Shown piece after piece: positions 3,221-49,328 of a DNA stretch of 55,077 bases (its first letter is position 1; each line of letters starts with the position of its first letter). The notes under the pieces were generated by a model. The model did not search any database, was not told the origin of the DNA, and saw nothing but the letters and a program-made list of their open reading frames with translations. The stretch is from NCBI GenBank assembly GCA_030748335.1, contig JASMMD010000004.1, positions 1 to 55,077 on the forward strand. Reading direction: 5' to 3'. The translations under genes and the position numbers were made by a program. Source of the DNA: Candidatus Thalassarchaeum sp. GTDB lineage: Archaea; Thermoplasmatota; Poseidoniia; Poseidoniales; Thalassarchaeaceae.

Positions 3221-3324
3221 CCGCGCTTAGCTCAGTTGGCTAGAGCACCTGACTGTAGACTGGAAACACTTGGTTGTAGGCAGCCATCAGGGGGTCCCCG
3301 GTTCAAGTCCGGGAGCGCGGACCA
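3221..3324 (+). tRNA. tRNA-Tyr (anticodon GTA at 3255-3257) with a 27-nt intron (3259-3285) at the canonical 37/38 site; CCA is encoded
   Basis: Hand-folded cloverleaf. Acceptor CCGCGCT/AGCGCGG (C1:G72). D arm GCTC-AGTTGGCTA-GAGC. Anticodon stem CCTGA/TCAGG. Variable loop GGGTC. T arm CCCGG-TTCAAGT-CCGGG. Discriminator A + CCA. The intron is flanked by 3-nt bulges AGA (3257-3259) and CCA (3284-3286) separated by a 4-bp helix (3253-3256/3280-3283), which is a BHB motif. Confidence 0.85.
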
Positions 3325-3407
3325 ATAACTCTCTCAGACACTCTTTGAGCAATGTGGGCAGACTGATAAAGGGGGGTTTGGTCGGCAGGCCGCAACGGGG
3401 TCTGACA

Positions 3408-3995
3408 ATGGGTGTTCAACAGCATGTTAGGTCACTCTGGAAGACTCCCAAGGCATCGCTACCGCCTAGGTACCGACGCGACCGTATGGCGAGTTGGAGA
3501 CGAGAGCCTGTGTATCAGAGAATCGAGAAACCAACCCGCATAGATGCTGCTCGCAGGGTCGGCTACAAGGCCAAGCAAGGAGTAGTCGTTGTTAGGACCC
3601 GCGTTCGCCGAGGAGGACTGCGCAAGAGCAAGGTCCACATGAAGCGAAAGCCTTCCAAGGCAGGTATCAAGAAAATCACAATGGGCAAGTCGATTCAGCG
3701 CATGGCCGAAGAGAGGGTCAGCAGGCGCTACCCGAACCTCGAGGTGCTGAACTCGTACTGGGTCGGCGAGGACGGCAAGAACAAGTTCTACGAGGTCATC
3801 ATGCTTGACCCGTCACACCCTGTCATCAAGTCGGACAAGCAACTCGGTTGGGTGTCCAGCGGCAACAGCCACCGTGGGCGGGCGTTCCGCGGCAAGACCA
3901 GCGCGGGCAAGCGCGGTCGTGGACTGATGAACAAGGGCAAGGGCGCAGAGAAGCTCCGGCCCAGCCTGAAGGCCAACAAAAACCGCGGCAAGTAG
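3408..3995 (+). CDS. rpl15e: 50S ribosomal protein L15e
   Basis: MGVQQHVRSLWKTPK..., YRRDRMASWRREP and a highly basic sequence typical of L15e. The ATG at 3408 was chosen because the longer ORF (3270) overlaps the tRNA. Confidence 0.9.
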   Translation: MGVQQHVRSLWKTPKASLPPRYRRDRMASWRREPVYQRIEKPTRIDAARRVGYKAKQGVVVVRTRVRRGGLRKSKVHMKRKPSKAGIKKITMGKSIQRMAEERVSRRYPNLEVLNSYWVGEDGKNKFYEVIMLDPSHPVIKSDKQLGWVSSGNSHRGRAFRGKTSAGKRGRGLMNKGKGAEKLRPSLKANKNRGK

Positions 3996-4017
3996 GCCCA
4001 ATGCGGCCGTCATATTG

Positions 4018-4299
4018 ATGCCTGTTGATTCTCGGCGGCAGTCGATGACAGACCGGCAAGTGTCAGAGATCCGAGGCCTTCCTGTGATTATGCCAAGCGG
4101 AAGGCTGCTCGGCACGGTCCACGACACGGTCATCGACACCGACGGCTGGACCTGCACGCACATCTTCGTCGCCGACCCGCCAGCAGATCTGGTTGAGGGA
4201 CGCATTCACGTCGCCATACCTTGGAACTGGGTCAGATCGATAGGTGATGTAGTAGTCCTCAGATGGTTTCCGTCAACTCCGATTCCGCGCAACTCCTGA
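4018..4299 (+). CDS. PRC-barrel domain protein
   Basis: SEIRGLPVIMPSGRLLGTVHDTVIDTDGW...HVAIPWNWVRSIGDVVVL resembles the PRC-barrel pattern. Start is uncertain (ATG 4018 or ATG 4045). Confidence 0.55.
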   Translation: MPVDSRRQSMTDRQVSEIRGLPVIMPSGRLLGTVHDTVIDTDGWTCTHIFVADPPADLVEGRIHVAIPWNWVRSIGDVVVLRWFPSTPIPRNS

Positions 4300-4393
4300 C
4301 TGGTGCCGAGTGGGTAGAACCAACCCTCAATGCTTGAGCATTGGATGAACGTGACTGCGATACGATTCAAAAGCAGAGGGCAAACCGTTCTGC

Positions 4394-6778
4394 GTGCGCC
4401 GAGCGTCCGCCACCCTGCTAATCGCCTTGCTTCTGCTCAGTTCGGCCCCTGTCGCCCAAGCTGACTCGAAGGGTGTAATCTCGTGCACCAACGCCGACCA
4501 GTCGATGATGCCGGCGAGCTGGGATGCCGCTGACCAGTCGTGCGTGAGGGTGGATCTGGGTGAACTGGAGCCAGGCGAAATTCTATCCTTCGACCTCACC
4601 ACGAATTCCAACATCGACATCCTCATGTTCTCGGTCAACTCGATTTCCGTATATCAGAACGAGCAGGTCTACCGAAGCGATTCGATTTGGGAGAGGAATT
4701 CAGTCTTCGAGGACTTCAACGGGACCGGGTCCTGGCACTGGACCGTCCCCGATGACAGGGAAACGACTCGATGGTACCTCGTCCTAGACAACTTGGCTCA
4801 TCCGCAGGATGGAGGAGGTGGGGCTCAGGGCGGCTCGATGGCATCGATATCCCTCAACTCGGCGACAGTCACCCCTGGGCCTTTCACGCTCGCTGACACC
4901 ATCGTTCGACTTGACTCCGGCGAGCACTCGGTCCTGCATGGGCCGTTCGTAGTCGACGCCGGCACTCAGGTTAGGATGGAGGCCAACACCATGGAGGGGG
5001 CTCCAGACGTCTTCCTGATGACTTCGTCACAGGTCTCTCTGTACGAGCAGGGCGGCACCGCCACCTCACGTGTTGAGGGCACCGACATGCTCCTCATCAC
5101 ACAGGAGCGCGACATGGTATGGCTGGCCACCGAGACTTACGAGGGCGAGGACCTCTACCTAGTGGTCGACAACAGGGCCGGTCCAGCCGGTGGAGGCGCG
5201 GGCACCGAAGACATCGCAGTCACCGTGACCCTCTCACTGACCCCTGTGCTGGAGCCGGTAATCAGCGGGGGCGTCTCACTTGAGATGATCAACGTCGGCG
5301 ACATCGTCACCCTCGACGCGACGCAGACCCCGAACAACTCAGGCCAGATTCCAGAGTCAGGCTTTCACTGGGACACCAATGGGGACGGCGTCGATGACAC
5401 CGCCGGGTCCTCGGTGAACGTGAGCTGGTCGGGTCCGACCAACGTCACCATCAGACTGACCGTGGTCGCTACCGACGGGCGCAGCGCCAGCGCTTACCAA
5501 CCAATCGAAATCGCCGACATATCGGAGCCCGAAGTGAGCATCGGAGTATCTTCAGTTCTTGAGCGCTCGTTCGGGGACGACGTGGTGCTAAGCGCGGTGG
5601 TGAGCGACAACTGGGGAATCGCGACCATCGAGTGGTTAGTCGATGACGTCCTGATGCGCTCAAACGCGGGGACCGATGAGGGAGCGACCGTGTTCAGCCA
5701 CCTGTTCAACTCCAGCTATGCCGCCGGACCCCATACCATCACGCTGCGTGTCACGGACAACTCGGGGCTGGTGTCCGAAGATTCCGCGGCCATCAGCCTC
5801 TACGACTCCACTCCACCAGTAATCGGCACGCATCAGGAGGAGTTGACCCTCCAAGTGGGACAGACCTTCAGATTCGAGGCCAACGTCAGTGATGCCGAGT
5901 CGAACAACCTGCTGTTCTCATGGGATTTCCAAGGCGACATCGATTCGAACTCCGATGGAGATCCGAGGAACGACGGCGACGGATTTGGCGATTCGGTGCT
6001 TTGGGACTTCAAGACCTCCGGCCCCGTGACCGTGGTCTGCCAAATTGAAAACGACGCCGGTCTGGTTTCCGAGTTCGAAGTTCTTGTGAACGTGCTCAGT
6101 GGGACTGAAGGAGACGAATCCGACCTGATGCAGTTGGGTCTCATGGCTGCAGGGGCCCTAGTGCTGCTCGTCCTGCTTGTGATGTTGATTTGGCGTTTCA
6201 TGTCCAATCGCAGACTAGCAGCAATGATTGCGGAGGAGGACGAGGACGAGCCTGTCGTCGCACCGCCCTCGGCAGAGGAGCAGAAGGCCATGTGGGGAGG
6301 GGGCGAGCCCACCGTGCAGACCGAGAGCCCCTCCCAGCAGGTATTCGGTGACTTCTCCAGCGGCATGTCGGGCTCCACCCAGGGAATCACCGCCGCCATG
6401 GGCAAATCGGATGACGCTGACATCGACCCCGATATCGCCGAACTGCTGCAATCTTCCTCTGAGACAACCCTCTCTGGTTCTGAGGAAGTTAGCGATCTAC
6501 TATCGGAATTCGAGGGCGAGGATGACGCTGTCGACAAGGATGAGATCGATTTCTCGCATGATTCTCAGGCTGAGGAGGCAGCATCGAACTGGACCCCGGG
6601 CGACAGTGAGGCCGAGGTGTTCCGGCCCGAGCAGGAAGAACCCGAACCGGATAGGACGGTCCGCCAGAGTTGCTCCTCGTGCGACAAGAGATTCGAGGTC
6701 GAACTGCCCCCCGGCGTAGACGCTGCCAGAACGGCATGCCCGCACTGCGGCTCGATTGAGTCAGTCAGCCTAGGATGA
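4394..6778 (+). CDS. Large surface protein A: signal peptide, duplicated N-terminal module, PKD/Ig-like repeats, TM, acidic cytoplasmic tail with C-terminal zinc ribbon
   Basis: GTG start. Signal-like MRRASATLLIALLLLSSAPVAQA. Two related modules end in WYLVLDNLAHPQDGGGGAQGG and LYLVVDNRAGPAGGGAGTED. PKD-like repeats (FHWDTNGDGVDD, HTITLRVTDNSG, FSWDFQGDIDSNSDGD). TM LGLMAAGALVLLVLLVMLIW. Approximately 190-aa acidic tail ending CSSC-x18-CPHC. Confidence 0.75.
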   Translation: MRRASATLLIALLLLSSAPVAQADSKGVISCTNADQSMMPASWDAADQSCVRVDLGELEPGEILSFDLTTNSNIDILMFSVNSISVYQNEQVYRSDSIWERNSVFEDFNGTGSWHWTVPDDRETTRWYLVLDNLAHPQDGGGGAQGGSMASISLNSATVTPGPFTLADTIVRLDSGEHSVLHGPFVVDAGTQVRMEANTMEGAPDVFLMTSSQVSLYEQGGTATSRVEGTDMLLITQERDMVWLATETYEGEDLYLVVDNRAGPAGGGAGTEDIAVTVTLSLTPVLEPVISGGVSLEMINVGDIVTLDATQTPNNSGQIPESGFHWDTNGDGVDDTAGSSVNVSWSGPTNVTIRLTVVATDGRSASAYQPIEIADISEPEVSIGVSSVLERSFGDDVVLSAVVSDNWGIATIEWLVDDVLMRSNAGTDEGATVFSHLFNSSYAAGPHTITLRVTDNSGLVSEDSAAISLYDSTPPVIGTHQEELTLQVGQTFRFEANVSDAESNNLLFSWDFQGDIDSNSDGDPRNDGDGFGDSVLWDFKTSGPVTVVCQIENDAGLVSEFEVLVNVLSGTEGDESDLMQLGLMAAGALVLLVLLVMLIWRFMSNRRLAAMIAEEDEDEPVVAPPSAEEQKAMWGGGEPTVQTESPSQQVFGDFSSGMSGSTQGITAAMGKSDDADIDPDIAELLQSSSETTLSGSEEVSDLLSEFEGEDDAVDKDEIDFSHDSQAEEAASNWTPGDSEAEVFRPEQEEPEPDRTVRQSCSSCDKRFEVELPPGVDAARTACPHCGSIESVSLG

Positions 6779-6857
6779 TTCGGCCAGTGCGATTATTCGA
6801 TGCAAAGCCGGTTCCTGTAGGGCAATACCCTATAGCGCACCTCTAGGAGGTGCGAAC

Positions 6858-9800
6858 ATGGACAACAGCGGTGTCAGGCTAGTCCACAGGGCGCCGAGGA
6901 CGGGCAATTCGCACACCTTACTGATGGCTCTGCTGTTCCTCCTCCCTATCCTCTCGCCGTTCTCCGCGGTCAGCGCCGAGGCCAGAATTGAGTCCCAAGA
7001 CTTCGAGATACTCGACCAGCTGTCCGAGGTCCTTGGGGAACGACAGGAGATACTCGACAGTAACTCCGTGGCGCAACTGGCCCAGCCAGTCATCGAGGGA
7101 GTCCACAACTCGGTGATTCCGACAGGAGCCTCGGACCCCCTAGCAAACGTGGACGGGGCGATAGATGGGGCGAGCATGGTCACGACCACCCCGCCGCAGC
7201 CGCAGCACCCTGGCCCATACAACCTGCTGTTGGATCCCAGCAACAGCCCCCCGGGGCAGGTCGACAACATCTGGCAGACCCTAGTGAATCTGACCGACTA
7301 TGTGATTTGGACGGAGTACACCGACCTCGATGGGAACAAGATTGAGACCTTCGAGGTGGTGACCTTCTCAGCCAACCTGCTCTCCCTGTTCGACATCAAC
7401 TCCGAACCGCTCCTTCACGAAATCGATGTTGACAATGATGGGGACGACGACATTGAGGTAGGCCTGAAGATCGCTTGGGAGTTCCTCGGAGGATGGGGTG
7501 TGGAGGGAGGGACGCTGTGGATTGAGCCCGGCATCTCCTACTCCGTCAAGGTGCTTGAGTCGAGCCAGAACGACCTAGACTGGAATCAGATGGATTCCCT
7601 TCAGGTCTCACTGATTAAGGCGTTCGCATATTCGGGACAGGATTCCATACTCGCCCTCGGAGAGGGCGAGACCTACATCTGGGTAGTAGACTCGAGATTC
7701 ACTGCTCAACCCGAGGACTTCACTCTCAGAGTGGGGATTGAGAGATTCTACTTCGACATCTCGGGAGCCGGTGCGGACCTAGTGTTCACTCTCATTCAGG
7801 CCCTCACTCTGGGATTCATCAATCAAGGAGCGGACGAGTCCGGAATCACCTTCGCTTCGATCGCCGCGCCATATGCCATTGAATTCAGGAACCCTGGCGG
7901 GGGGGACTGTCCGGATAGGTACTCTCCAGACGAGATGCTCTTCGCCACCTACACCGAGTTGAACTGCGGATTATCTGCCGGCTTCGGCTACATGCACTTC
8001 TCACCGCCTGATGACAATGGGGACAGGGATCTCTGGGAACTGGCCTACATCGAGCTATCATTCCATCCCAACAAACAGGCCGTGGTCATCCCCGAAGAGG
8101 CCGATGTGGTAATCAGGACAGATAGCGTTCTGCCCGAGAACAACATCGTCGACGGCGAGAGGGGCCTAACCACAATCGAGTATTGGGCAGACGAGAGAAC
8201 CGACTTGCATATCCACTTCCACGAGAACAGGTCAGAACTCCCTCCTGAGGAGTCCAGCGATGGAGGTAGAGGTAACGTGACAGATTCCGTAGGGTGGCTG
8301 AGGGGGCTGCCGAAAGGGTCGTTGTCGGAAGGTGAGATAGAGCGTGTCTTTCGCATGCTCGGCTCCGATGGTTCGCAATCACAACTACCGGGCGAGCTCC
8401 CTCAGAGGCTCGGGTTCATCATCGGAATCAAGAACTTCTCCAGAGACGACAGCGAGAATGTGGACGATCCCACCCTGCCGGTCAATCCGGCGAATCCCCC
8501 GAAGACCCTGATTCTCCTACGATCAGTACAATCATTGGAGGAACTCGACTACGATTCGTGGTTCATCAGGGAGGGCGCTGTCGAGGACCACAGGAAGATA
8601 CACATCACAGCAAGGGACCTGCCTACGGCACTGGTCCTCTACGGCTCATTCGAACTCAGTGGAGGCTCAAGCGAGAGCGCACTCGACTCGGAGGACAGCC
8701 TCGACTTTGTTTCAAAGATAGTTGACAACGTCCTGATCAACATAGTCGACCTGTTCCTAGACATAGGAACCATCCTGAACGACGTTCCCTCGGCCGTGGT
8801 CGATGTCATCAGCGGAGGCGTCGATGGGACCAGCGGTCTCGAGGGCAGGACGGTCCACCTGCTTCTCACAGACAACTGGCTGGTAACCAGATCCGAAATG
8901 CCCCTAACCAGCCTATCGGTTCAGATAGGCTCGAGTGACCACCCGATTGGTACCGGCGACCACCTGATGCTGGCCAGAGACAGTGAGATGGAAATGGTCC
9001 AAGGCCGGAACGGACCAGTCGAGCCCCTGACGCCAGTGTCAGCCAGTCTTAGCTTCAGCGGACTCATTGCATTCTCCCTGATTGACGACGACGAGTTGGA
9101 TGAACAGACCGTGATACTCCGCACAGCATCCGACGAGAGCTTCTCATTCACATTCATCGACTATCACTCGGGAACGCTCGATGACGCCTCCTTCGAGTCC
9201 CTGAAACTCAGTGACATACCCAGCAACTTATCCATCCATGTCACTCCAAGTGGGATGGAGTACCTCGCCTCCTCGGCCATCGAGTCGGTGACCTACGCGG
9301 GCAAGGACGACACGCAGCGCCAAGCGGCCGTAATCACCGGAGTTCCTGACTCGTTCAGCACATCTTCGGGCAGCATGACAGGTTGGTCTTCGTCCACACC
9401 CATATCGTCCATCGAGGCGCAGATTAGCAACTCGACCAATCCCGTCAGTATGACAGGCGACCACTTCCTCTTCCATCACGATCAGGAGTCCCAGACCTCA
9501 ACCATCTCAACCAGACTCACTGGTCTGAGCGAGGTCAGCTGGACGGATCCCGCGGAGTTCGGGGCCACTGGTCCCGCCGGTAGGGGGACTGCTCAGATCT
9601 CGGTGTCAGGGGACCGTGCTCTGAACATCAACGTCGACCACGCACCGACGGTCGGAGGAACCCCACTCTCCGTATTGGCTTCAATCGATCCACTTCCCTC
9701 AACCGTCGGGGTACAGATTCCGACTGGAACCGACTCGGGGGCCAGTCTAGATGTGCCCGAACTAAACACCTCGAACGGACTCTCCGGGGTCGCATTCTTC

Positions 9801-11240
9801 ATCAGCGGCTTCGCTGATCTCGGCAGATCTGTCAACAGCGTCCTATCGGGCATAACCTCGGACATCTCCACCAGCTCCGAGTCCGGCGAGGATTTCTCCT
9901 TCGGCATTCAACTCGAGGCAGACTCCACGTTCGACCTCACGGTGGAGGCAATACATGGTGATGGCCCTCTCAAGGCGCCGACCTGGGTTCACGGATTCGC
10001 CTTCCAGTCGGCTCCCTCGGGAATCGCTGATGGATTCCACTTGAGGGCTTGGCTACCCAATCTACCTCCAACGATAGATCTCTCGATATCTAGGTCGAAC
10101 GAAGTCAACGGCCAGGATTGGACAATCAGTCTGGGGCTTGAGGGATGGTACCCCGCACACAGCGAGTTCATGTTCCAGGTATACGGAATAAATGGTCAAG
10201 ATCTGCTGCTCACCCTACAGGGTCTGAGCGTGGGGGTGCCCACGGACCTCGGCCTCGATGCAATCTTTGAGATCAGGACAGTCGGTGAGATTACTGAGGT
10301 CACCACATCAACTCACTATGTCCTCTCAGACAGGTTGGATTGGGTCCACATACTACTCATCAACAGGGAGGCCGGAAGCAGGACTGAGGTGATGATCCAC
10401 GATATCCCGGAGACGGTCGACCTGCAAGCCAGTCTGGGCACGGCGATATCCATCGACATGACGGTCCCTGAACAATATCGGCGCGAGGGATCCTCAGTCG
10501 GCGCCATAATGATGCAGCAGATGCAGTGGCTGGACTCGGCGTGGTGGCCGGCGACGATTTTCCTGACCGACGTGCCCGGCTGGATTAACCTGACAACGGC
10601 CCCTTCTCTTGAGTTCGACATAACCCAGAACATAGCCTTCCAAGGTACCCCGACCCTAGACTTCAGGGCCTCGGAGGAGGGGATGTCACTGTACATCGAG
10701 GCCTTTGGCAGGGCGATAAACAAGAAAGGAGATACCATCCTCCTAGCCGAGGGAATGACCGATTTCATGTCAATCAAGACCACGGAGTCATATGGCCTAG
10801 CAATCAGATCAGGAGGGGTCGGGGTCGAACGTATGTACATCCGTCTCAGTAACGTTCCCATTAGCCCGCCGATGGTGCTCGAGGAGATGGAGGCGCTGGG
10901 GGAGAACCTGAAGCGGGCTACGGTGAACATCAGGGAGGTAGTGGCCCCGTACAGCATCATCGAGCTGGATGACGTGCAAGGCGAGAGAATCATCGTCTCC
11001 GCTCGCGCCTCAGCTGAGTTCAAGGGTACTGAATTCGACCTCAGGGGCGTTCTCCTTGATGCTCAGATTACCGATGGAATCCCGACTGGTACGACTTTGG
11101 GGGTCAATGGGTTGGCCTCGGATCTGTCACTTCTCAACATGATTCCAGGAATGAGCGGCTCGACCAAGCATGTGATGGTCATCGAGCCCTTCTCATCGGC
11201 GATTCTGACGTTGCTCGCTACGCTTCTGGGGGGTGATTGA
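6858..11240 (+). CDS. Giant (1460 aa) secreted/anchored protein B of unknown function
   Basis: Strong Shine-Dalgarno GGAGGTG 7 nt upstream of the ATG. Signal-like LLMALLFLLPILSPFSAVSAEA. One integrin/FG-GAP-like Ca-site motif DVDNDGDDD (about 7425-7458). Short hydrophobic C-terminus EPFSSAILTLLATLLGGD. I recognise no other family motif. Confidence 0.75.
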   Translation: MDNSGVRLVHRAPRTGNSHTLLMALLFLLPILSPFSAVSAEARIESQDFEILDQLSEVLGERQEILDSNSVAQLAQPVIEGVHNSVIPTGASDPLANVDGAIDGASMVTTTPPQPQHPGPYNLLLDPSNSPPGQVDNIWQTLVNLTDYVIWTEYTDLDGNKIETFEVVTFSANLLSLFDINSEPLLHEIDVDNDGDDDIEVGLKIAWEFLGGWGVEGGTLWIEPGISYSVKVLESSQNDLDWNQMDSLQVSLIKAFAYSGQDSILALGEGETYIWVVDSRFTAQPEDFTLRVGIERFYFDISGAGADLVFTLIQALTLGFINQGADESGITFASIAAPYAIEFRNPGGGDCPDRYSPDEMLFATYTELNCGLSAGFGYMHFSPPDDNGDRDLWELAYIELSFHPNKQAVVIPEEADVVIRTDSVLPENNIVDGERGLTTIEYWADERTDLHIHFHENRSELPPEESSDGGRGNVTDSVGWLRGLPKGSLSEGEIERVFRMLGSDGSQSQLPGELPQRLGFIIGIKNFSRDDSENVDDPTLPVNPANPPKTLILLRSVQSLEELDYDSWFIREGAVEDHRKIHITARDLPTALVLYGSFELSGGSSESALDSEDSLDFVSKIVDNVLINIVDLFLDIGTILNDVPSAVVDVISGGVDGTSGLEGRTVHLLLTDNWLVTRSEMPLTSLSVQIGSSDHPIGTGDHLMLARDSEMEMVQGRNGPVEPLTPVSASLSFSGLIAFSLIDDDELDEQTVILRTASDESFSFTFIDYHSGTLDDASFESLKLSDIPSNLSIHVTPSGMEYLASSAIESVTYAGKDDTQRQAAVITGVPDSFSTSSGSMTGWSSSTPISSIEAQISNSTNPVSMTGDHFLFHHDQESQTSTISTRLTGLSEVSWTDPAEFGATGPAGRGTAQISVSGDRALNINVDHAPTVGGTPLSVLASIDPLPSTVGVQIPTGTDSGASLDVPELNTSNGLSGVAFFISGFADLGRSVNSVLSGITSDISTSSESGEDFSFGIQLEADSTFDLTVEAIHGDGPLKAPTWVHGFAFQSAPSGIADGFHLRAWLPNLPPTIDLSISRSNEVNGQDWTISLGLEGWYPAHSEFMFQVYGINGQDLLLTLQGLSVGVPTDLGLDAIFEIRTVGEITEVTTSTHYVLSDRLDWVHILLINREAGSRTEVMIHDIPETVDLQASLGTAISIDMTVPEQYRREGSSVGAIMMQQMQWLDSAWWPATIFLTDVPGWINLTTAPSLEFDITQNIAFQGTPTLDFRASEEGMSLYIEAFGRAINKKGDTILLAEGMTDFMSIKTTESYGLAIRSGGVGVERMYIRLSNVPISPPMVLEEMEALGENLKRATVNIREVVAPYSIIELDDVQGERIIVSARASAEFKGTEFDLRGVLLDAQITDGIPTGTTLGVNGLASDLSLLNMIPGMSGSTKHVMVIEPFSSAILTLLATLLGGD

Positions 11241-11241
11241 C

Positions 11242-11796
11242 ATGGGACTGCTCGAGAAACTCAGCAGCGAGGACGAGGAGGCCGACACAGAGGCGGCTCA
11301 CGAGGTTCTGGAGGCCATCGAGGAGAGGGCAACCAGACTCATCTCGCCGACACGGGTCATTTTCGCCTCCCTGACAGTCGTACTCCTGCTGTCCGCCAGC
11401 CTGTTCGTCCTGACTTGGATAGTCCCCTATGATAGGGTAAGTCTGGACGTGGTTTATCGACAGGGAGGCCCGGGACACGTCGTCTTGGTTGAACTAGACA
11501 ACGACGGCAGTCGAACCATCGAGAACATCGATCTGCAAATCAGGTTCATCGATTCGGATGGCTTAGAGGTATCCAGATCATCGTTCCAGAGGGAGTATTT
11601 ACCAGCCCACTCGTCGGTCTCAGGTGATGACATGGAACTGCTCATCGATGGTGCCTCGGTGTGGGAGAATTACACCATCGAGATACTGCTCTACTACGAT
11701 TCCTACTCTGCCCAGAGGAGCGAGAGGTGGACGCACGATGTAGGGGGATGGACGATGGAGCTGTTCTTCGACGAGACCCAGTACCGGTTCTTTTAG
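11242..11796 (+). CDS. Small single-pass membrane protein C (acidic N-terminus, TM, about 120-aa beta-rich ectodomain)
   Basis: The ATG at 11242 lies 1 nt after the stop of protein B and is preceded by GGGGGGTGA. TM is VIFASLTVVLLLSASLFVLTWIV. The ectodomain contains VELDNDGSRTIENIDLQIRF (an N-x-G strand motif like the downstream proteins). Confidence 0.6.
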   Translation: MGLLEKLSSEDEEADTEAAHEVLEAIEERATRLISPTRVIFASLTVVLLLSASLFVLTWIVPYDRVSLDVVYRQGGPGHVVLVELDNDGSRTIENIDLQIRFIDSDGLEVSRSSFQREYLPAHSSVSGDDMELLIDGASVWENYTIEILLYYDSYSAQRSERWTHDVGGWTMELFFDETQYRFF

Positions 11797-11815
11797 TGCC
11801 CAATCACGACTCTTC

Positions 11816-11834
11816 ATGGGTTCGTAGAACCCAT
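11816..11834 (+). terminator. Perfect hairpin ATGGGTTC-GTA-GAACCCAT, 20 nt after the stop of protein C and following a TTCTTTT tract; putative terminator/processing element
   Basis: Reverse-complement arms verified base by base. 8-bp stem, 3-nt loop. Confidence 0.35.
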
Positions 11835-11867
11835 ACGCTCAAATTGAGGACTGCGAGGCGATAGCCG

Positions 11868-14800
11868 ATGACAAAGCGCTCCGTGACGCTGATGATTGCT
11901 ATTCTTCTGCTGTCATACATCCCGGTAATCGAGCAGTCAGAGAATTCCTCAGACACCTCCTCGCAGTTGTTGGATGGCATGTTCGAGAGAGTGGAGATTT
12001 CTCCTGATCCTAATAGTATTCAGGACCTCGGGGCGCCAGCGATATACTCCGGTTTCGAGGACATCAGAGCAACCAGAGCGGACTCCAGCATAGGCGTCTA
12101 CACCCTTTCCGGATTAATCCCCGCGGTTCAGATGAACGCTGAGCTGGCTCAGCCAAGGAGCGATCTGGCGATGGTCCTCATTGACGGCGAGGTTGGTCTC
12201 TGGGATGGCAGGCAGGCCCTTTTCGAGGCAGGCGACCTCGAAGTCAGGTCCACGATTCCACCTTCTGGATTACTAGTGCAGGCCACACCCGAGACTATCT
12301 CGAAACTTTCCCTGATAGATGTCGTTGAGGCGGTGCACGCAGTCCCCTCAGGCCTCCTCATCCACCCCGAGCTGAGGACGGCCAGCGGTGAGCAGTCGCT
12401 CCTAGTCGAGGTCATGGGATGGAAGGACTCGGACCTGATACGCCACGACCGGCCGGGAATGGGCATCAAGGATTCCTTGGACACGGCAGCTTCCCTGTGG
12501 ATGGAGGAGGCGTGGTCACCCGAACAGGGCAGGATGTGGGGAATGGTCTCGCTCGATGAAGTGGATGACCTAGTCAGGCACCCGTCTGTAGCCTACGTCG
12601 CTCCGATGCCGGTACTGGTTCTGCACAACGATCAGGCTAGGGTGAACATGGGAATCAACTCGGTTGAGACCACGTTCATCACTGGACTGAACGGCAGTGG
12701 CCAGAAGATCGCCGTGGGTGATTCCGGGCTTGACGACGACCACGGCGACTTCACCGGACGGATCGCCGGCCTGACCTCGGTCACCCCTGGTGACTCTTCT
12801 ACTGCCGATCTCTCCGATGGGCATGGCACCCACGTCGCCTGCACCGTGATGGGCGATGGGTTCCGCAGCAGCGGCACCTACCAAGGAGTAGCACCCGAGG
12901 CGCAGGTCTACTTTCAGGCCATGGAGGACGACGATACAGGGCAGTTGTACAGCTACGGCATCAACAGCATGCTCAACTCGGCTTACAACAACGGCGCACG
13001 CCTGCACACCAACAGCTGGGGTGCAGGCAGCGGGGGCGGCAGCTACTCCACTCAGTCGGAGGACGCCGACGATCGCACCTCGACGTGGGATCAGTATTGG
13101 TCCTACCAGGGAATGACGGTGTTATTCGCTGCTGGCAACGAAAGGAACGACGGCGTCTCACCTCCTGGGACCGCCAAGAACGTCATCACCATCGGCGGTC
13201 ACAAGAACCGATACAACGGTGCTCCTGACGAGATGTACTACTGGAGCAGCCGAGGTCCTACTGACGATGGCAGAATCAAGCCCGACCTCGTTGCACCAGG
13301 CGACTACGTCAGGTCATGCAAGTCGCAGGAGGCGGACAGCGCTCAGGGCTCTTGGAGCAACAACTGGTACCTCGAGTACAGCGGCACTTCGATGGCCACC
13401 CCAGCAGCGGCTGGAGCGGCCGTACTCGTCAGGGAGTACCTCATGGAGGTCATCGGCAGGCAGGCCCCCCAAGGAGCTCTGATCAAGGGACTCCTGATAC
13501 TGGGAGCTCAGGATATGGGAACCCGCGACATCCCCAACGACGACGAGGGGTGGGGCAGGGTGAATCTAGTCGACTCGCTGATTCCTGACAGTGATGTTGG
13601 GATCTTCGTAGACGATCGCTCGAGACTCTCGAGCGGGCAGACGAGCGAGTACACGTTTGACATCACTCGCGCGGGCGAGCCCATGAAGGTCGTACTGACT
13701 TGGTCGGACTACCCCGGATCCTCCTCATCCTCGAACCAACTCAGGAACGATCTCGACCTAGAGGTGATATCGCCCAACGGACAGGTCACGTACAAGGGAA
13801 ACGCATTCGTCAACGGGCGTTCGGTTACTGGCGGGACCAAGGACTCGATTAACAACGTCGAGGTCGTGCTGATCGACAACGCAGCCACCGGGACGTGGAC
13901 CGTGCGCGTGCGCGACGCCCAGCACGGTGGCGGTAGGACTTGGCAACCGTACGCCCTCGCCGTACGAGGCGTCAATGTCAACGACCTCAGCCCGGACCCG
14001 GCCTTCATACAGAACTCCTTCGAGATATCTTCACCGATTCCCCAGGTGGGGGAGGAAGTGGATGTCTCTGTCACCATTCAGAACCAAGGCGCCGGTTCCG
14101 TCGCCGACCTATCCGTCATCGCTCGGGCAGATAGCGAACTCCTCGGGACCCACCAACTGAGCATGTCCCCGGGAGAGTCGACCGTACTCGAATGGAACTG
14201 GACGCCGACTCAGGAGGGGGATGTCGTGTTCACATTCCACATAGACCCGAGCGACACCGTCGAGGAGGCCTCAGAGAGCAACAACTACCTCACCCAGACG
14301 GTAGTGGTCAGCGCGCCGGGAGTCAGAGTCACCTCTGAGCAGGAGACGGTAACTCTAGGCGACGCCACTCATAGTTCGACCACATGGCAACTCTCGCTGA
14401 TGAATACCGCCCTCTTCGAGACCAACGCTACGATAGAGGTCAGCGACCCCGTGAGGATCCAGGACGGAATGCAGTACGACTGGTTCACCTCGTTCACGTC
14501 TAACACCTTCAATCTAGAAGCGGCCGAGACCGAATCGGTGAGCCTGACGATGGTCCATCCAGCGCCACCACCACCCGGACTGTATAGCATGGTCGTAACT
14601 GGGACCGACGTTGAGAACAGTGTCACCTCCGAGCTCGTGATTTACTTCGACGTGCCCGTTCTGGCCGGAGTCGACATCGTAATGCCGAGTGAGCAATTCC
14701 TGATCAGCCCCCTCGAGCCTACGGAACTACAGATACTGGTCTTCAACGAGGGCAACGGCGCCCAGACCTACGACGTGGAACTAATCTCACCTGCCGGCTG

Positions 14801-16373
14801 GCATCTCGGGCTCGACACTCTCGGGGCGTTCACCGGGTCCTCGCATGGCTCCACTGGAACTATGGCCAAGGATTCCGGTCGGGCTATAGACATCACAATC
14901 AACCCACCTGGAGCGATGATACCCGCAGGATCGGTATTCGACGCTGCGGTTATCATCCACTCGCGAGTTAGTTCCGACTCGTGGAGCGAGGACATACCAC
15001 TTGTGGTCAAGGCGATAGACGAGGTCACCACAACACCGTCCTCCGATGGAGTCGAGCACGATATCGCCCCTGACGCGCTGCTAGAGATCGAGGTGGAACT
15101 CAACAATCACGGCAATCGGTTGCTGGACCTGCAGCCGTATGTACGGAACATGCCCGGAGGGTGGACCGTATCAGGTGGGCTCGAAACCATTAGTATTCCA
15201 GCCGGTGAGACCGGCGTCTGGTCGGTATCACTGCAGGGCAACGGAGTCGCTATCAGCGGGGTTTTGGAACTCAGATTCGCCACAGGTGACGGTTTCTACA
15301 TTGATTGGAACAGGACTCTGAACGTCCTCTCGGGGGCAATCCCGACTCTGGACTTCCACATGGTCGCCCTACCCGATGGGACCGTCGCAGACCACCCACT
15401 GGGAGTCGGGGCGCACCCGGTTGGCGATCCCGGATTCGACCTTGCTTGGACTATCACTAATCAGGGCTCGACGACCTGGAGACCGACCACTTACCTCGAA
15501 GTACCCGACGATGACTGGACATCGTCGTGTTCTGCTCCTTCCACGCTCTCTGCCGGAGCCTCGTCCACGGTCTGGTGCACGGTGGTTATACCACTCTCAG
15601 CCGAGGCATCCTCCGAACCCATCGTCACCCTTGTGATGCAGGGCGAGGGCGTGGAGATCAGTGACTCGATTTCCCTGTTTGTGGAGTCAGTCGCCAGAGT
15701 GAGTTGGTCTCTGACCAACCAGCCCACTGGGCACGAGGGATATCCGACCACGCTGTACATAGATCTGGAGAACACCGGGAACTCGGAGATATCCCACATC
15801 CTGCAAGTCTCCGGACCGGAAGGATGGAACCCGTTGATTCTCGACGGCGTGGTGGTCAACCTTAGACCGGGCGAGATTAGGAGTCTGGATCTAGGATTCA
15901 CACCCAATTCGGGGGAAGATGGTGTAGTCGTCGTGGAGTTGGTCGACGCCGATGACGTCGAAGATTTTTCCTTCAGCATAGAGATCGACGTTCTTCCGGC
16001 CTCTAGGGAGCAGGGAAGTTCTCCGTTGAAGACGCTTCTCATCGCATTGATTGTGCTGGCTCTAGTGGGTGGCGGTCTCTATGTCTACTCCCGCAGGGGA
16101 GGTGCTCCCTCTAGCCTGATTAAGACTGACTCCCTGAGCAAGATAGCTGACAGTCTCAGCCCGATATTTCCGAGGGAACAAGATGAGGAAGAGGAGGGTA
16201 GTGGCATTCCCTGCTGGATCTGTAGTCAGGACATCACACTGGGCGAGGCGTGGGCCTGCTCCGAGTGTGGCGCTAGGTACCACACGGCAGGGCAGGTGCA
16301 GGGCTGCGACATCGTTTCGATGGGCAACTGCCTGCACTGCGACGCCTCTTCTGACGAACTGGTTGAAGCGTGA
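11868..16373 (+). CDS. Membrane-anchored subtilisin-family (S8, pyrolysin-like) serine protease D with beta-sandwich repeat stalk, TM and cytoplasmic Cys-rich zinc-finger tail
   Basis: Catalytic triad motifs: AVGDSGLDDDHGDF (Asp codon 12720), DGHGTHVAC (His codon 12822), SGTSMATPAAAGAAVLV (Ser codon 13389). Oxyanion-hole motif TNSWG. Post-catalytic LTWSDYPGSSSSSNQLRNDLDLEV jelly-roll. About 6 N-x-G-N repeats (IQNQGAGSV, VFNEGNGAQ, LNNHGNRLL, ITNQGSTTW, LENTGNSEI). TM LLIALIVLALVGGGLYVY. Tail CWIC-x11-CSEC-x4-H-x7-C-x7-CLHC. Confidence 0.9.
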   Translation: MTKRSVTLMIAILLLSYIPVIEQSENSSDTSSQLLDGMFERVEISPDPNSIQDLGAPAIYSGFEDIRATRADSSIGVYTLSGLIPAVQMNAELAQPRSDLAMVLIDGEVGLWDGRQALFEAGDLEVRSTIPPSGLLVQATPETISKLSLIDVVEAVHAVPSGLLIHPELRTASGEQSLLVEVMGWKDSDLIRHDRPGMGIKDSLDTAASLWMEEAWSPEQGRMWGMVSLDEVDDLVRHPSVAYVAPMPVLVLHNDQARVNMGINSVETTFITGLNGSGQKIAVGDSGLDDDHGDFTGRIAGLTSVTPGDSSTADLSDGHGTHVACTVMGDGFRSSGTYQGVAPEAQVYFQAMEDDDTGQLYSYGINSMLNSAYNNGARLHTNSWGAGSGGGSYSTQSEDADDRTSTWDQYWSYQGMTVLFAAGNERNDGVSPPGTAKNVITIGGHKNRYNGAPDEMYYWSSRGPTDDGRIKPDLVAPGDYVRSCKSQEADSAQGSWSNNWYLEYSGTSMATPAAAGAAVLVREYLMEVIGRQAPQGALIKGLLILGAQDMGTRDIPNDDEGWGRVNLVDSLIPDSDVGIFVDDRSRLSSGQTSEYTFDITRAGEPMKVVLTWSDYPGSSSSSNQLRNDLDLEVISPNGQVTYKGNAFVNGRSVTGGTKDSINNVEVVLIDNAATGTWTVRVRDAQHGGGRTWQPYALAVRGVNVNDLSPDPAFIQNSFEISSPIPQVGEEVDVSVTIQNQGAGSVADLSVIARADSELLGTHQLSMSPGESTVLEWNWTPTQEGDVVFTFHIDPSDTVEEASESNNYLTQTVVVSAPGVRVTSEQETVTLGDATHSSTTWQLSLMNTALFETNATIEVSDPVRIQDGMQYDWFTSFTSNTFNLEAAETESVSLTMVHPAPPPPGLYSMVVTGTDVENSVTSELVIYFDVPVLAGVDIVMPSEQFLISPLEPTELQILVFNEGNGAQTYDVELISPAGWHLGLDTLGAFTGSSHGSTGTMAKDSGRAIDITINPPGAMIPAGSVFDAAVIIHSRVSSDSWSEDIPLVVKAIDEVTTTPSSDGVEHDIAPDALLEIEVELNNHGNRLLDLQPYVRNMPGGWTVSGGLETISIPAGETGVWSVSLQGNGVAISGVLELRFATGDGFYIDWNRTLNVLSGAIPTLDFHMVALPDGTVADHPLGVGAHPVGDPGFDLAWTITNQGSTTWRPTTYLEVPDDDWTSSCSAPSTLSAGASSTVWCTVVIPLSAEASSEPIVTLVMQGEGVEISDSISLFVESVARVSWSLTNQPTGHEGYPTTLYIDLENTGNSEISHILQVSGPEGWNPLILDGVVVNLRPGEIRSLDLGFTPNSGEDGVVVVELVDADDVEDFSFSIEIDVLPASREQGSSPLKTLLIALIVLALVGGGLYVYSRRGGAPSSLIKTDSLSKIADSLSPIFPREQDEEEEGSGIPCWICSQDITLGEAWACSECGARYHTAGQVQGCDIVSMGNCLHCDASSDELVEA

Positions 16374-16378
16374 AATTG

Positions 16379-16397
16379 CGCGACCCTAGGGGTCGCG
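16379..16397 (+). terminator. Perfect hairpin CGCGACCC-TAG-GGGTCGCG, 5 nt after the stop of the S8 protease gene
   Basis: Arms verified base by base. 8-bp GC-rich stem, 3-nt loop. Confidence 0.35.
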
Positions 16398-16438
16398 TTG
16401 CCCGAAGTCCTTAGAGGGACGGTTATCTCGGGGTGACG

Positions 16439-19132
16439 ATGGAGCGTAGTTCTTCTGCAGCAATCCTCACAGCGATGCTGCTGCTCACAATCGCGTCACC
16501 ACTAGCCTCAGCAGCCGTTTCAGTGTCGCTTTCCGCGAACCCCACGGCCCAAGAGGCCACGACAGATGACGACGCCGAGTACGACATCATCGTGACCAAT
16601 GACGGCGATGAGGACATCTCAGTGTCCCTCAGCACCCAGCAGGGTAACGACTGCAACGGATTCAGCTCCTCCCTTGACACGTTCCAAGTCTCAGTCAATG
16701 AAGGCGAGTCCGAGACCGTCAAACTAACAGTTACGGTGAACGACCAAGCCGATGGTGATTGCGAGACTACCGTCAACGCCCAAGCAACGGGTGGCCTAGG
16801 GTCCCCCGCCAGTGATGACGTGACTGTGACCACCACCGCAGGCGACGGTGGCGGACTCTACTCGGTCAAACTGACGACCGATGAGCAGCTGAAGACCTAC
16901 GACGGCGACTCGACCGAGTCCGACAGCGTGGTCTGGGACGTCGAGGTCGAGAACAACGGCGAGCAGCAGGCAAACGTCCAGTTGGAGATGACTTCGGACA
17001 GTGACTGCGAGTCCGACACCCTCGATGCCACCGTCGACCCGCAGGTCCTACAACTCGATCCAGAGGACAAGGAGACCGTCGAAGTCACCGTCGATGTGCC
17101 TGATGGGAGTTCGACCGAGGCGGGCGACCATTGCTTCATCCTCAAGGCCACGGTGACAAACGATCCTAATGCTGCAGATCAGGCCGAGGACAACATCACT
17201 CTGACCCTCAAAATCCCAGAGCGCAAGGAGTGCGAGCCCGATCTGCAATTCACCTCTCACAGCCTAGATCCCGGTGCCTCGGCCACTAACTCGTTCGAGG
17301 TGGAGAACATCGGCAACACGGAGTGGACGGTCACTGCCAACGCTCAGGCTCAGGACTCCGAGCACGATATCTCAGGATGGATTGACTTCGACAGCCCGCT
17401 CAGCAAACTCCTCTCGGAACCGGGAGGATCCCAAGACAGCCATACGTTCACCTTCAGCGTGACACCAGACGACTCCGTAGAGTCCGGAACGCAAGTCGGA
17501 ATCAAGATACAGGGTCGTGCTGGGACCTCAGTCGGCTGTGAGCAGATTCTGACCGTCACTGTAGGTCAGAGTCACGAGGCATCGATGACCCTGAGCAAGA
17601 ACAAGCTCAGCAACGTGGAGCCAGGTAGTTCGGACACGGTAAGCGTTCAGATCACCAATCGGGGCAACGGCATGGAGACCATGTCTATAGGAGCCACGGG
17701 ACTGCCCCCGGGTTGGCAGATATCATTCTCCCAGACGTCGGTGACCATTGGTAGCTCTCACTCCGGCAACAACAAGGAAACGGTCACTGCCGAGGTGTTC
17801 GTACCCGAGGACGCGAGCGCGGCCGAGGACACGGTCATCACCTTCACGGTTGGGCGCGGTGGCGGTAGCACCCCCTATGACACGAAAGACCTCACAGTTT
17901 CAGTGGCTGCGCGCCACAGCGTCACCACCTCGATCCTGTCGGCCCAACAGACGGGCAAGACCGGCCAGACAGTCCAGTTCCCGATTGATGTGACCAACTC
18001 CGGGAACATCCAGGACACATTCAAGCTGCTGGCCTGCGACCCGGGAGACCAGACCGGATGCAACTCCCCGATGTGGGAATCGTCATTCTCAGACTCGCAA
18101 GGGAATACGATTACGCAGATCGTCCTGAATCCGGGGCAGATGCAGACCGTGTTTCTCGACATCCTAGTTGAGGGCGAGGAGGATGCTGACTCTGCTAGCG
18201 TTCTGGCAAGGATAGCAATCTATGGATCCACCGAGTCGGATGAGCACACACTCAGTGTTGTGGTCTCGAATTACAATTACGCCATGGCCATATCGCCCCA
18301 GAGCCCGGGTGAGGTACCTGACCAGATTGAGGCCACTCTCCCTCCCGGTGGGTCAATGATTGCTGCATTCTGGGTCGAGAACACCGGCGACTATCCTGGA
18401 GGGGACAACGCGGTAATCACCGTCACTGGAATGGAGTCCTCCGTATTGAGGACGATAACGGTAGAGGGCGTGGAGATTGAGGGCACGATGACGCTGGGAA
18501 TGGGCGAGAGAGCTCTCGTCGAGGTCCAGTTGGAGGTCCTAGAAGGTGTCGCCAACGGCGTCGCAGGCGTGGTCAAGGTAAGCGCCTCGTCAGAGAAGAA
18601 TACAGCCCAGAGCACATCTGTCAACATCATCGTTGAGGTCAGGACGATTCACGACCTCAGATTCACCCTTGAGGGCGAGGACGAACAGACCGCTGAGTAC
18701 CCGGATAAGGCCTACTTCACTCTGTACATCACAAACCACGGAAACATCGCCGAGGACGTTGAGGTAATCTCCAGTGAGTCGCTCAGGGGATGGGCGGTGA
18801 ACGTTGACTTCGACGAGTTCGAGCTCGAACCAGGGTCGACCAAGGAGGTCCAAGTCAGCGTCACACCGCCCAGCGATCTGCTGGATGACGACACCTACTT
18901 GTTCACTGTCACGGTTCAACCGGAGGGACTTGCCGTTGCAGGCGAGCCCATCGACCTGACTGTGACCTCCGAGATGCCGTCGACCTTCATCGGCCTATCC
19001 GAGGAAATGGCCCAAGCCCTCGTTTACGGCTCAATAGTCCTAGGTGCCATTCTCGTCATAGTGCTGTTCTTCCGTTCACGTTCGGAGAACCGCCGAATAG
19101 CCGAGGCCCTCGAAAATCAGTTTGAGGACTAG
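16439..19132 (+). CDS. Repetitive beta-sandwich (CARDB/NEW3/DUF11-like, COG1470-type) envelope protein E with C-terminal TM anchor; possible S-layer/cell-surface component
   Basis: Signal-like MERSSSAAILTAMLLLTIASPLASA. Seven repeats of roughly 110-120 aa, each with an N-x-G motif (VTNDGDEDI, VENNGEQQ, VENIGNTEW, ITNRGNGME, VTNSGNIQD, VENTGDYPG, ITNHGNIAE). TM LVYGSIVLGAILVIVLFF, then a short basic tail. The ATG at 16439 is preceded by GGGGTGA. Confidence 0.8.
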   Translation: MERSSSAAILTAMLLLTIASPLASAAVSVSLSANPTAQEATTDDDAEYDIIVTNDGDEDISVSLSTQQGNDCNGFSSSLDTFQVSVNEGESETVKLTVTVNDQADGDCETTVNAQATGGLGSPASDDVTVTTTAGDGGGLYSVKLTTDEQLKTYDGDSTESDSVVWDVEVENNGEQQANVQLEMTSDSDCESDTLDATVDPQVLQLDPEDKETVEVTVDVPDGSSTEAGDHCFILKATVTNDPNAADQAEDNITLTLKIPERKECEPDLQFTSHSLDPGASATNSFEVENIGNTEWTVTANAQAQDSEHDISGWIDFDSPLSKLLSEPGGSQDSHTFTFSVTPDDSVESGTQVGIKIQGRAGTSVGCEQILTVTVGQSHEASMTLSKNKLSNVEPGSSDTVSVQITNRGNGMETMSIGATGLPPGWQISFSQTSVTIGSSHSGNNKETVTAEVFVPEDASAAEDTVITFTVGRGGGSTPYDTKDLTVSVAARHSVTTSILSAQQTGKTGQTVQFPIDVTNSGNIQDTFKLLACDPGDQTGCNSPMWESSFSDSQGNTITQIVLNPGQMQTVFLDILVEGEEDADSASVLARIAIYGSTESDEHTLSVVVSNYNYAMAISPQSPGEVPDQIEATLPPGGSMIAAFWVENTGDYPGGDNAVITVTGMESSVLRTITVEGVEIEGTMTLGMGERALVEVQLEVLEGVANGVAGVVKVSASSEKNTAQSTSVNIIVEVRTIHDLRFTLEGEDEQTAEYPDKAYFTLYITNHGNIAEDVEVISSESLRGWAVNVDFDEFELEPGSTKEVQVSVTPPSDLLDDDTYLFTVTVQPEGLAVAGEPIDLTVTSEMPSTFIGLSEEMAQALVYGSIVLGAILVIVLFFRSRSENRRIAEALENQFED

Positions 19133-19188
19133 GCACGACCCCAAACTCAAGGCCGGATAGGCTTATTGCCCAAATTCAGGTGCAATGA

Positions 19189-19216
19189 CCCGACGGTCCC
19201 GTTAGGGACCGACGGG
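19189..19216 (+). promoter_or_regulatory. 12-bp stem (one A.A mismatch) hairpin CCCGACGGTCCC-GTTA-GGGACCGACGGG ending 7 nt before the nuoA ATG
   Basis: Arms checked by eye. It lies between the stop of protein E (19132) and the nuoA start (19224). Confidence 0.3.
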
Positions 19217-19223
19217 TGTTACT

Positions 19224-42292: not shown

Positions 42293-42343
42293 ATCACCTT
42301 GACCCGTTCGCGCCCGGGCGAGTGTTGGGGGTGGGGAATCTGA

Positions 42344-49249: not shown

Positions 49250-49328
49250 ACTCAAGGGGCAGCATTTTCCCTCTTCAACCTGCGTCTGCTGCAGTAACCA
49301 CCTTGAGACAGTGCGCCTTGCGAGGTGC

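Follow-up and report, generated by a model that had tools for sequence, protein, structure and literature searches.

A five-gene block of surface proteins conserved in Poseidoniales includes a family without known relatives and a predicted stalked membrane subtilase

The subject of this analysis is a block of five genes in Candidatus Thalassarchaeum sp. (Marine Group II, Poseidoniales; family Thalassarchaeaceae), located in positions 1 to 55,077 of contig JASMMD010000004.1 of the GenBank assembly GCA_030748335.1; this whole stretch of 55,077 nucleotides (nt) is called the window below. Five consecutive open reading frames (ORFs), designated A to E and all on the plus strand, fill positions 4394-19132, which is 14.7 kb, or 26.8% of the window, between the genes for ribosomal protein L15e and a PRC-barrel protein on one side and nuoA on the other, as had been stated in a reading of the sequence made without database searches (the original prediction). 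These ORFs are not a chance occurrence, because they are very long and have conserved homologues in hundreds of genomes. Their coordinates and layouts, with lengths in amino acid residues (aa), are:

Gene A, 4394-6778, plus strand: 794 aa, GTG start; signal peptide, two modules of about 130 aa each with no family match (aa 25-290), three PKD/immunoglobulin (Ig)-like domains (aa 295-560), a transmembrane (TM) helix (aa 582-604), a cytoplasmic linker and a C-terminal zinc ribbon.
Gene B, 6858-11240, plus strand: 1460 aa; an N-terminal signal peptide (aa 1-41), an Asp-rich loop, IDVDNDGDDD, that is conserved (aa 188-198), and two long helices (aa ~617-652 and aa 975-1004), after each of which comes a beta-meander of long strands (about 22 and about 32 strands, respectively).
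Gene C, 11242-11796, plus strand: 184 aa, or 187 aa from an upstream GTG at 11233; acidic cytoplasmic N-terminal tail, TM helix (aa ~36-64), V-P-Y/R motif, and an ectodomain of about 110 aa with an N-x-G-S motif.
Gene D, 11868-16373, plus strand: 1501 aa; signal peptide, N-terminal region of about 250 aa, KP-43-type S8 peptidase with beta-barrel (aa 272-683), CARDB and about five Ig-like N-x-G-N domains (aa 705-1380), TM helix (aa 1387-1407), and a Cys/His-rich tail (aa 1449-1491).
Gene E, 16433-19132, plus strand: 899 aa; signal peptide, about seven Ig-like domains of the CARDB/NPCBM_assoc type with a period of about 117 aa, TM helix (aa 862-882), and a short basic tail.

Each of the five products is either exposed at the cell surface or anchored in the membrane. 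Hydropathy profiles display signal-peptide-like N-termini in A, B, D and E, an N-proximal TM helix preceded by basic residues in C, which makes it a type II single-pass protein with the N-terminus inside, and one C-proximal TM helix followed by basic residues in each of A, D and E. The positive-inside rule is satisfied by all four TM proteins (A, C, D and E), with the ectodomain facing out. The signal- or TM-like starts of all five proteins, the single C-terminal helix of A, D and E and the single pass of C had all been noticed in the original prediction, and all of them hold.

Relatives of B were found in 286 genomes when one genome from each GTDB species was scanned with a sequence pattern. 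The pattern was built from the closer set of B proteins, as a diverse alignment has no conserved stretch, and the 80 best loci, which were kept for comparison by tblastn together with five other Poseidoniales loci obtained by protein look-up, all belong to Poseidoniales. The order L15e-PRC-A-B-C-D-E-nuoA-nuoB is the same, on the same strand, in 85 of these 85 loci as far as the contigs extend, and no inner gene is missing; conservation of the five-gene order in relatives, which had been set as a test of the block, is thus found. All nine genes are present in 56 loci, where the median identity to the proteins of the window is 46% for A (the least conserved of the five), 59% for B, 53% for C, 62% for D and 61% for E, and 80%, 77% and 89% for L15e, nuoA and nuoB, respectively. 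The block persists down to about 30-35% identity of B, as in loci L006, L090 and L091. In L091 (GCA_002715545.1) the genes A-B-C-D-E-nuoA, as called, overlap or are no more than 8 nt apart (up to 50 nt with alternative starts), and in L006 the run B-C-D-E-nuoA is preceded by an A-like gene lying four genes upstream. B proteins of the close family are 1455-1466 aa long, and B is a core gene rather than a gene of a variable island; GC content is even across the window, so that there is no sign of a foreign island.

Two of the assemblies call for a comment. In L090, which also has the order A-B-C-D-E-nuoA, the gene for D is frameshifted: the orthologue at 12136-16953 is broken up into pieces in different frames, and there are 167 N in the scaffold; faulty assembly seems likelier than a pseudogene. 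L082 (NZGC01000064.1) has the L15e-PRC-A-B-C part of the block with B 46% identical, and was deposited as 'Gammaproteobacteria bacterium MED698'; this contig was probably mis-binned.

B is a very acidic protein of the secreted type, and it constitutes a protein family without a Pfam model, a named homologue or a structural neighbour. It has no match in Pfam, NCBIfam or PADLOC, and profile search against the PDB sequences gives chance matches only. The nearest public relatives come from 'Euryarchaeota archaeon CM1_200m.P32' (97% identity) and Marine Group II (MGII) archaeon MED-G34 (88%), and all 177 close homologues are annotated as 'hypothetical'. Exhaustive HMMER search of 1.84 billion representatives yielded just 150 clusters of the B family, comprising Poseidoniales proteins of 1417-1559 aa down to about 30% identity and about 20 full-length clusters (1250-1780 aa) at 20-25% identity. 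Family-wide, the signal peptide is followed by a helix with a D-[FYW]-G motif, the Asp-rich DxDxDG-like loop, a possible Ca2+ site, is invariant, and the proteins end in H-x-I-I-P-x-P-x-x-S/T-x-x-x-T-L-L. B of the window has a C-terminal H-x-M-V-x-E-P-F with a helix of 14 aa. The hydrophobic C-terminal stretch seen in the original prediction is present, and a TM helix is not: the conserved P-x-P motif of B and its relatives has only 10-14 residues after it, which would not suffice to cross the membrane. An archaeosortase signal was considered too, and no CTERM model matches.

Confident AlphaFold2 models of B were obtained for aa 261-1460 (mean predicted local confidence, pLDDT, 79.8; predicted TM-score, pTM, 0.64) and for aa 960-1460 (pLDDT 85.5, pTM 0.84). 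They consist of two units, each a helix of 30-36 residues leading into an up-and-down meander of strands 8-18 residues long, and the chain is closed by a short terminal helix. Neither model has a real neighbour in the PDB by Foldseek, nor does the larger one in BFVD; the best values are a probability of no more than 0.28 and a TM-score of no more than 0.15, at a root-mean-square deviation above 20 Å. The top entries are the ApoB100 belt, LptD, SusC/TonB-dependent receptors, VDAC and phage tail fibres, which in these models would reflect local similarity of beta-meanders only. An outer-membrane-type beta-barrel (LptD, TonB receptor, VDAC) was considered for B and dropped because of TM-scores of 0.15 or less.

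Gene C follows B closely, the two being translationally coupled, and the spacing by itself would suggest co-transcription. The junction reads ...GGTGAT TGA C ATG, with the 1-nt spacer that had been described originally, or, with the alternative GTG start, an 8-nt overlap; the gap between B and C is 10 nt or less in 79 of 82 loci. C has a sub-threshold match to the FxLYD model of NCBIfam and no long helix in its ectodomain. The distant B-like genes, 20-25% identical to B, were followed up in four loci (L005, L087, L088 and L089), and in each of them a C-like gene lies directly 3' of the B-like gene. These genes encode proteins of 149-204 aa with a variable tail, a TM helix, the V-P-R/Y motif and N-x-G-S/T, and in all four fetched loci there is no D or E beside the pair. 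The flanking genes include the archaeal markers Pus10, LonB and eIF5A, by which these loci appear to be archaeal. The protease and the Ig-array protein therefore seem to have joined an older two-gene unit, and the original description of the block as 'built around' the S8 protease does not stand: its oldest and tightest unit is B-C. B and C, neither of which has a characterised family, are the real novelty of the block.

D belongs, by its sequence, to family S8, subgroup KP-43, and would be an extracellular subtilase on a stalk of CARDB/Ig domains. It covers positions 1-288 of the 288 in the Pfam Peptidase_S8 profile (E=9e-44; 150.3 bits, cutoff 21.8), and residues 272-683 align with residues 17-417 of the 434 in the KP-43 protease (1wmd; E=3e-73). 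The complete catalytic triad claimed for D is borne out: D285, H319 and S508, together with the oxyanion residue N424, lie in intact D-(T/S)-G, H-G-T-H and G-T-S-M-A-T-P motifs, align with the motifs of KP-43, and are invariant across three diverged orthologues. The beta-barrel domain is contiguous with the catalytic domain in the 1wmd alignment, and its matches to P_proprotein and PPC are weak. Residues 1-270 have no match in Pfam, including the I9 propeptide, and are conserved among orthologues. The stalk consists of a CARDB domain (E=9e-18) and NPCBM_assoc-type repeats. Extracellular S8 peptidases, presumed to break down proteins outside the cell, are reported from every MGII metagenome-assembled genome (PMC6864105). 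Membership in the anti-phage defence systems that use S8 peptidases (IetS/IteS) was considered and rejected: PADLOC recognises D only by its generic model of subtilases and has no match to the other four proteins.

The Ig-like repeats of the D stalk are of the same N-x-G-N class as those of E, and N-x-G-[NSTD] motifs recur in both proteins with a period of about 117 aa. E matches FixG_C, NPCBM_assoc and CARDB-type repeats in Pfam and passes the cutoff of the NCBIfam model NF041740 'choice-of-anchor T' (96.1 bits, cutoff 70); it stays under the cutoff of NF033506 'putative S-layer protein' (63.6 bits, cutoff 110). Homologues of E number 513, none of them named. Its C-terminal helix is followed by RSRSENRR..., and CTERM models detect neither PGF-CTERM nor another archaeosortase signal. 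The matches in A are weak, namely three to PKD, PKD_4 and Big_7 within residues 295-560; Pfam PKD (PF00801) reaches 24.0 bits against a gathering threshold of 23.5, yet no single stretch passes, and PKD_4 scores 25.1 against 27. BLASTP shows no significant similarity between the two N-terminal modules of A, as an internal duplication might have left (E=0.08); the modules might perhaps be PPC-like. By sequence, then, both A and E would be generic PKD/CARDB surface proteins. The Ig or beta-sandwich architecture originally proposed for A, C, D and E is upheld in D and E, is suggested for A by weak PKD/Big matches, and for C comes down to the sub-threshold FxLYD match and one N-x-G-S motif.

Cys-rich modules on the predicted cytoplasmic side of A and D, also part of the original prediction, are indeed found:

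6671-6754, plus strand: predicted cytoplasmic zinc ribbon of A, CSSC...CPHCG, aa 760-787.
16212-16340, plus strand: predicted cytoplasmic Cys/His-rich module of D, CWICS-x12-CSECGARYH-x8-C-x7-CLHC.

In A the module takes the form CxxC-x18-CxxC at aa 760-785, separated from the TM helix by a linker of about 150 aa that is acidic, disordered and, in the alignment with homologues, poorly conserved. A CxxC-x(10-25)-CxxC pattern is present in the A tail of 78 of 79 related loci, the sole exception having ambiguous bases; the ribbon scores 30.6 bits against Zn_ribbon_8 of Pfam, under the cutoff of 34.4. The module of D comprises eight Cys/His residues at aa 1449-1491, beyond the TM helix on its basic (cytoplasmic) side, and scores 16.9 bits against Prok-RING_1, below the threshold of 29.1. 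It is found in 52 of 78 loci; in 23 others its place is taken by a Trp-rich YPGWLWDPxxxEWVPDP sequence, in two (L081 and L084) the tail is helical, and in one (L091) it is absent, while the ectodomain is conserved throughout.

The remaining gaps of the block are longer than that between B and C. Their medians are 82 nt for A-B, 72 for C-D, 65 for D-E and 91 for E-nuoA, against 9 for nuoA-nuoB. Short motifs and perfect hairpins of 7-8 bp, conserved across related loci, are located in the gaps 4300-4393 (where the element before A is CGATACGATTCAAAAG), 6779-6857, 11797-11867, 16374-16432 and 19133-19223. The elements upstream of B, D and E are:

6837-6853, plus strand: perfect palindrome GCACCTC-TAG-GAGGTGC, 4 nt before the ATG of B, preceded by conserved GGGCAATACCCTATAGC.
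11797-11867, plus strand: C-D intergenic region with the hairpin ATGGGTTC-GTA-GAACCCAT followed by TATA-like ACGCTCAAAT, conserved in related loci.
16374-16432, plus strand: D-E intergenic region with the hairpin CGCGACCC-TA-GGGGTCGCG right after the D stop, followed by conserved GCCCGAAGTCCTTAGAGGG, kept in related loci.

The palindrome before B pairs a GGAGGTG resembling a Shine-Dalgarno sequence with CACCTC resembling its complement. Across L009, L011, L018, L001, L019, L038 and L039 the stem of this palindrome does not change and the loop does; it could be an RNA hairpin or a protein-binding site. A scan for bacterial promoters and terminators is uninformative here, the host being an archaeon. 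We infer that the conserved elements are separate archaeal promoters with 3' or 5' hairpins. The promoter-like motifs and the long gaps therefore suggest that the block is probably transcribed as four units, A, B-C, D and E, rather than as a single operon. Co-expression of all five genes as one unit, assumed in the original prediction, thus does not agree with these gaps, only B-C being operon-tight.

Taken together, we regard the block, with moderate confidence, as a Poseidoniales-wide set of genes for an envelope coat that also carries the surface protease of the cell. Under this envelope-coat reading, B would be exported by the Sec pathway and retained at the surface by its co-translated partner C, the N-terminal helix of C sitting in the membrane and its ectodomain, together with the C-terminal P-x-P helix of B, holding B in place. 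E and the C-terminal two-thirds of D would both be chains of CARDB-type Ig domains fixed in the membrane by a C-terminal TM helix, and the two may co-assemble; the long Ig stalk would therefore hold the subtilase head of D some tens of nm off the membrane, roughly as far out as E reaches. There D could play a nutritional role, turning extracellular protein into peptides close to the transporters of the cell. A would be a further surface binding protein, with the cytoplasmic zinc ribbon linking it to an intracellular partner. The S8 peptidases reported for MGII genomes and the exterior protein layer described for Thermoplasmatales (see below) agree with this reading.

Several observations weigh against this assignment. 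B has no similarity to solved S-layer proteins, and the tail of D varies between lineages rather than being one conserved module. The A-B, C-D and D-E gaps contain TATA-like motifs and hairpins of their own, suggestive of separate regulation, and the genes for L15e, PRC, nuoA and nuoB are as strictly syntenic as A-E, so that in Poseidoniales gene order is weak evidence of shared function. N-glycosylation sequons (N-X-S/T), counted against composition-matched shuffles, give a mixed picture. The distant B proteins (P0158-P0217) have 16-30 sequons against an expectation of 5-13, at a mean z of 4.5 and with up to 30 against about 9, as is typical of archaeal glycoproteins exposed at the surface; this fits the B family taken as a whole. 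In Poseidoniales the counts for B are close to the expected ones (z 0.8), B of Thalassarchaeaceae is not enriched, and E has 1 sequon against 8.0 ± 2.6 expected; E and 16 of its homologues have 1-2 against about 8 (mean z about -2.8). E, being depleted, and Thalassarchaeaceae B, being not enriched, both differ from the classic S-layer glycoproteins.

It is possible, though on balance doubtful, that A-E are five independent surface proteins, adjacent only through the regional collinearity of streamlined genomes and with B-C as the only functional unit. The housekeeping flanks, kept in the same order in 85 of 85 loci, agree with such a view, as do the 65-82 nt gaps with their own promoter-like motifs and hairpins, the four unrelated genes that part A from B in L006, and the occurrence of distant B-C pairs without D and E. 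What speaks for more than neighbourhood is that B-C-D-E stay contiguous at about 30-35% identity of B despite rearranged upstream genes, that the called genes of L091 are as tightly packed as described above, and that the D stalk and E share the same class of repeat. The envelope-coat reading can also be pushed further than we have done: B-C may be the major S-layer-type pair, of new fold, in Poseidoniales and in a wider set of uncultured archaea, joined in MGII by D and E into a coat that protects and digests and is tied to intracellular partners by the A ribbon and the D tails. We consider this extended version unlikely.

The original prediction saw the block as one physical apparatus, an interpretation that is partly supported. 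In its strict form, a single capture-and-degrade machine in which A and E bind substrate, D cleaves it, B-C provides a chamber or scaffold and the zinc tails couple the whole to the cytoplasm, it appears quite unlikely. The five genes do co-occur across the order, the protease has a membrane anchor and a long stalk, PKD and CARDB domains often occur where secreted proteases bind their substrates (compare the match to ColH in the PDB), and the zinc ribbon of A is near-invariant. However, B-C exists without the protease in other archaea, a third of the species have a different tail on D or none at all, and there is no transporter gene within the block. Coupling of the ectodomains to the cytoplasm through zinc-finger tails, as originally envisaged, is not supported for D, where the Cys tail is found in just 52 of 78 loci, even though the A ribbon is kept in 78 of 79. 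We think it very improbable that A, and in many species D, are transmembrane sensors in which ligand binding or cleavage triggers intramembrane proteolysis and frees the tail, for instance for a role in transcription or division. A does have the requisite succession of ectodomain, TM helix, acidic disordered linker and invariant zinc ribbon, the ribbon weakly matches Zn_ribbon_8 and the ribbons of Brz-type regulators, and the window also has genes for an M50 site-2 protease and for a signal-peptide peptidase of the presenilin type. The basis for a sensor is purely architectural, though; the two peptidase genes are 22-30 kb away and are housekeeping genes in archaea, no DNA-binding domain was found, and the D tail differs between lineages.

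Among characterised proteins, D is most similar to the KP-43/SubHal subtilases (1wmd, 5fax), with which residues 272-683 align end to end, with the same triad and beta-barrel. KP-43, however, is a secreted enzyme of 434 aa, to which D adds about six CARDB/Ig domains, a TM anchor and a Cys-rich cytoplasmic tail. The cell-envelope proteinases (lactococcal PrtP, C5a peptidase, pyrolysin) are, like D, S8 enzymes of more than 1400 aa on a long surface stalk; the bacterial ones have a PA-domain insertion and an LPXTG anchor, whereas D has neither, is anchored by a TM helix instead, and has no Pfam match to an I9 propeptide in its N-terminal region. Another surface-layer stalk that carries a protease of the subtilisin family is reportedly found in the tetrabrachion-STABLE complex of Staphylothermus marinus, said to have been described by Peters and colleagues in 1995 and Mayr and colleagues in 1996. 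There the stalk would be a coiled coil with the protease bound non-covalently, whereas D has its own Ig-domain stalk and TM helix; to our knowledge, nothing beyond the S8 domain is homologous between that complex and the block.

The B-C pair resembles SlaA-SlaB of Sulfolobales in its logic, that is, a large canopy subunit with a small anchor subunit, but is not a member of that system. SlaA, like B, is a secreted all-beta protein of about 1400 aa without a TM helix, the gene for the small membrane-anchored partner adjoins downstream, and SlaA is sequon-rich, as are the distant homologues of B. The two large proteins nevertheless have no sequence or fold similarity (PDB profile search, Foldseek), B being made of long-strand meanders behind helices rather than Ig sandwiches; and SlaB has a C-terminal TM helix and a trimeric coiled-coil stalk, whereas C, of 184 aa, has an N-terminal TM helix and no coiled coil. 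The S-layer of Sulfolobales is now described as having three components, with Saci1846 (bioRxiv 10.64898/2026.08.21.746120). E, in turn, has the signal peptide, tandem Ig-like domains and C-terminal anchor of the Ig-domain S-layer glycoproteins (Haloferax csg type) and of the choice-of-anchor T proteins, and differs from the Haloferax csg type in its plain TM helix with a basic tail, the lack of a PGF-CTERM signal and the depletion of sequons. Within the same phylum, Thermoplasmatales (Cuniculiplasma, Oxyplasma) have no recognisable S-layer gene and are covered by a dense unordered exterior layer, about 20 nm thick, of membrane-attached proteins (PMC12448462). One would expect a coat of that sort from proteins such as A, D, E and B-C.

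The original prediction further held that no characterised system has this composition. This is true of B and C, which have no characterised family, and not of the rest, D being an ordinary subtilase of the KP-43 type and A and E being generic; literature searches for this block, or for an S-layer or envelope protein of Poseidoniales, found no description. MGII are among the most abundant archaea of the surface ocean, are uncultured, and their envelope is unknown. As concrete, order-wide proteins, A-E are the best current candidates for the MGII cell coat; the block supplies the B family, its obligatory small partner C, and, with D, the S8 peptidase to which protein scavenging by MGII has long been ascribed, here in its membrane-anchored form. 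With candidate proteins of this kind at hand, the question of the MGII envelope becomes testable with existing metaproteomes and metatranscriptomes. The proteins are also likely virus receptors, as well as targets for cell capture or labelling.

Further afield in the window, the 5' neighbours of the block are, in order, HisRS, a gene without assignment, FtsZ, a tRNA, L15e and the PRC-barrel gene, and the 3' neighbours are those of the nuo operon (nuoA/B/C/D/H). The two genes just upstream of A are:

3270-3995: L15e.
4015-4299: PRC-barrel gene.

A presenilin-type signal-peptide peptidase (41210-42502, minus strand) and an M50 site-2 protease (47741-49468, minus strand), both intramembrane, could in principle process the single-pass proteins A, D and E. 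The ORF at 1075-1896 (minus strand, 273 aa), between HisRS and FtsZ, has no Pfam match; at the corresponding place in L001, L003 and L004 there are genes of similar size for which Pfam gives no match either. The tRNA, identified by Rfam at 3221-3321 on the plus strand (101 nt, 56 bits) and missed by ARAGORN, presumably contains an intron. It overlaps the first 17 or so codons of the longest L15e ORF, which starts with TTG at 3270; the true start of L15e is probably downstream of that position, because matches to homologues begin at residues 30-45.

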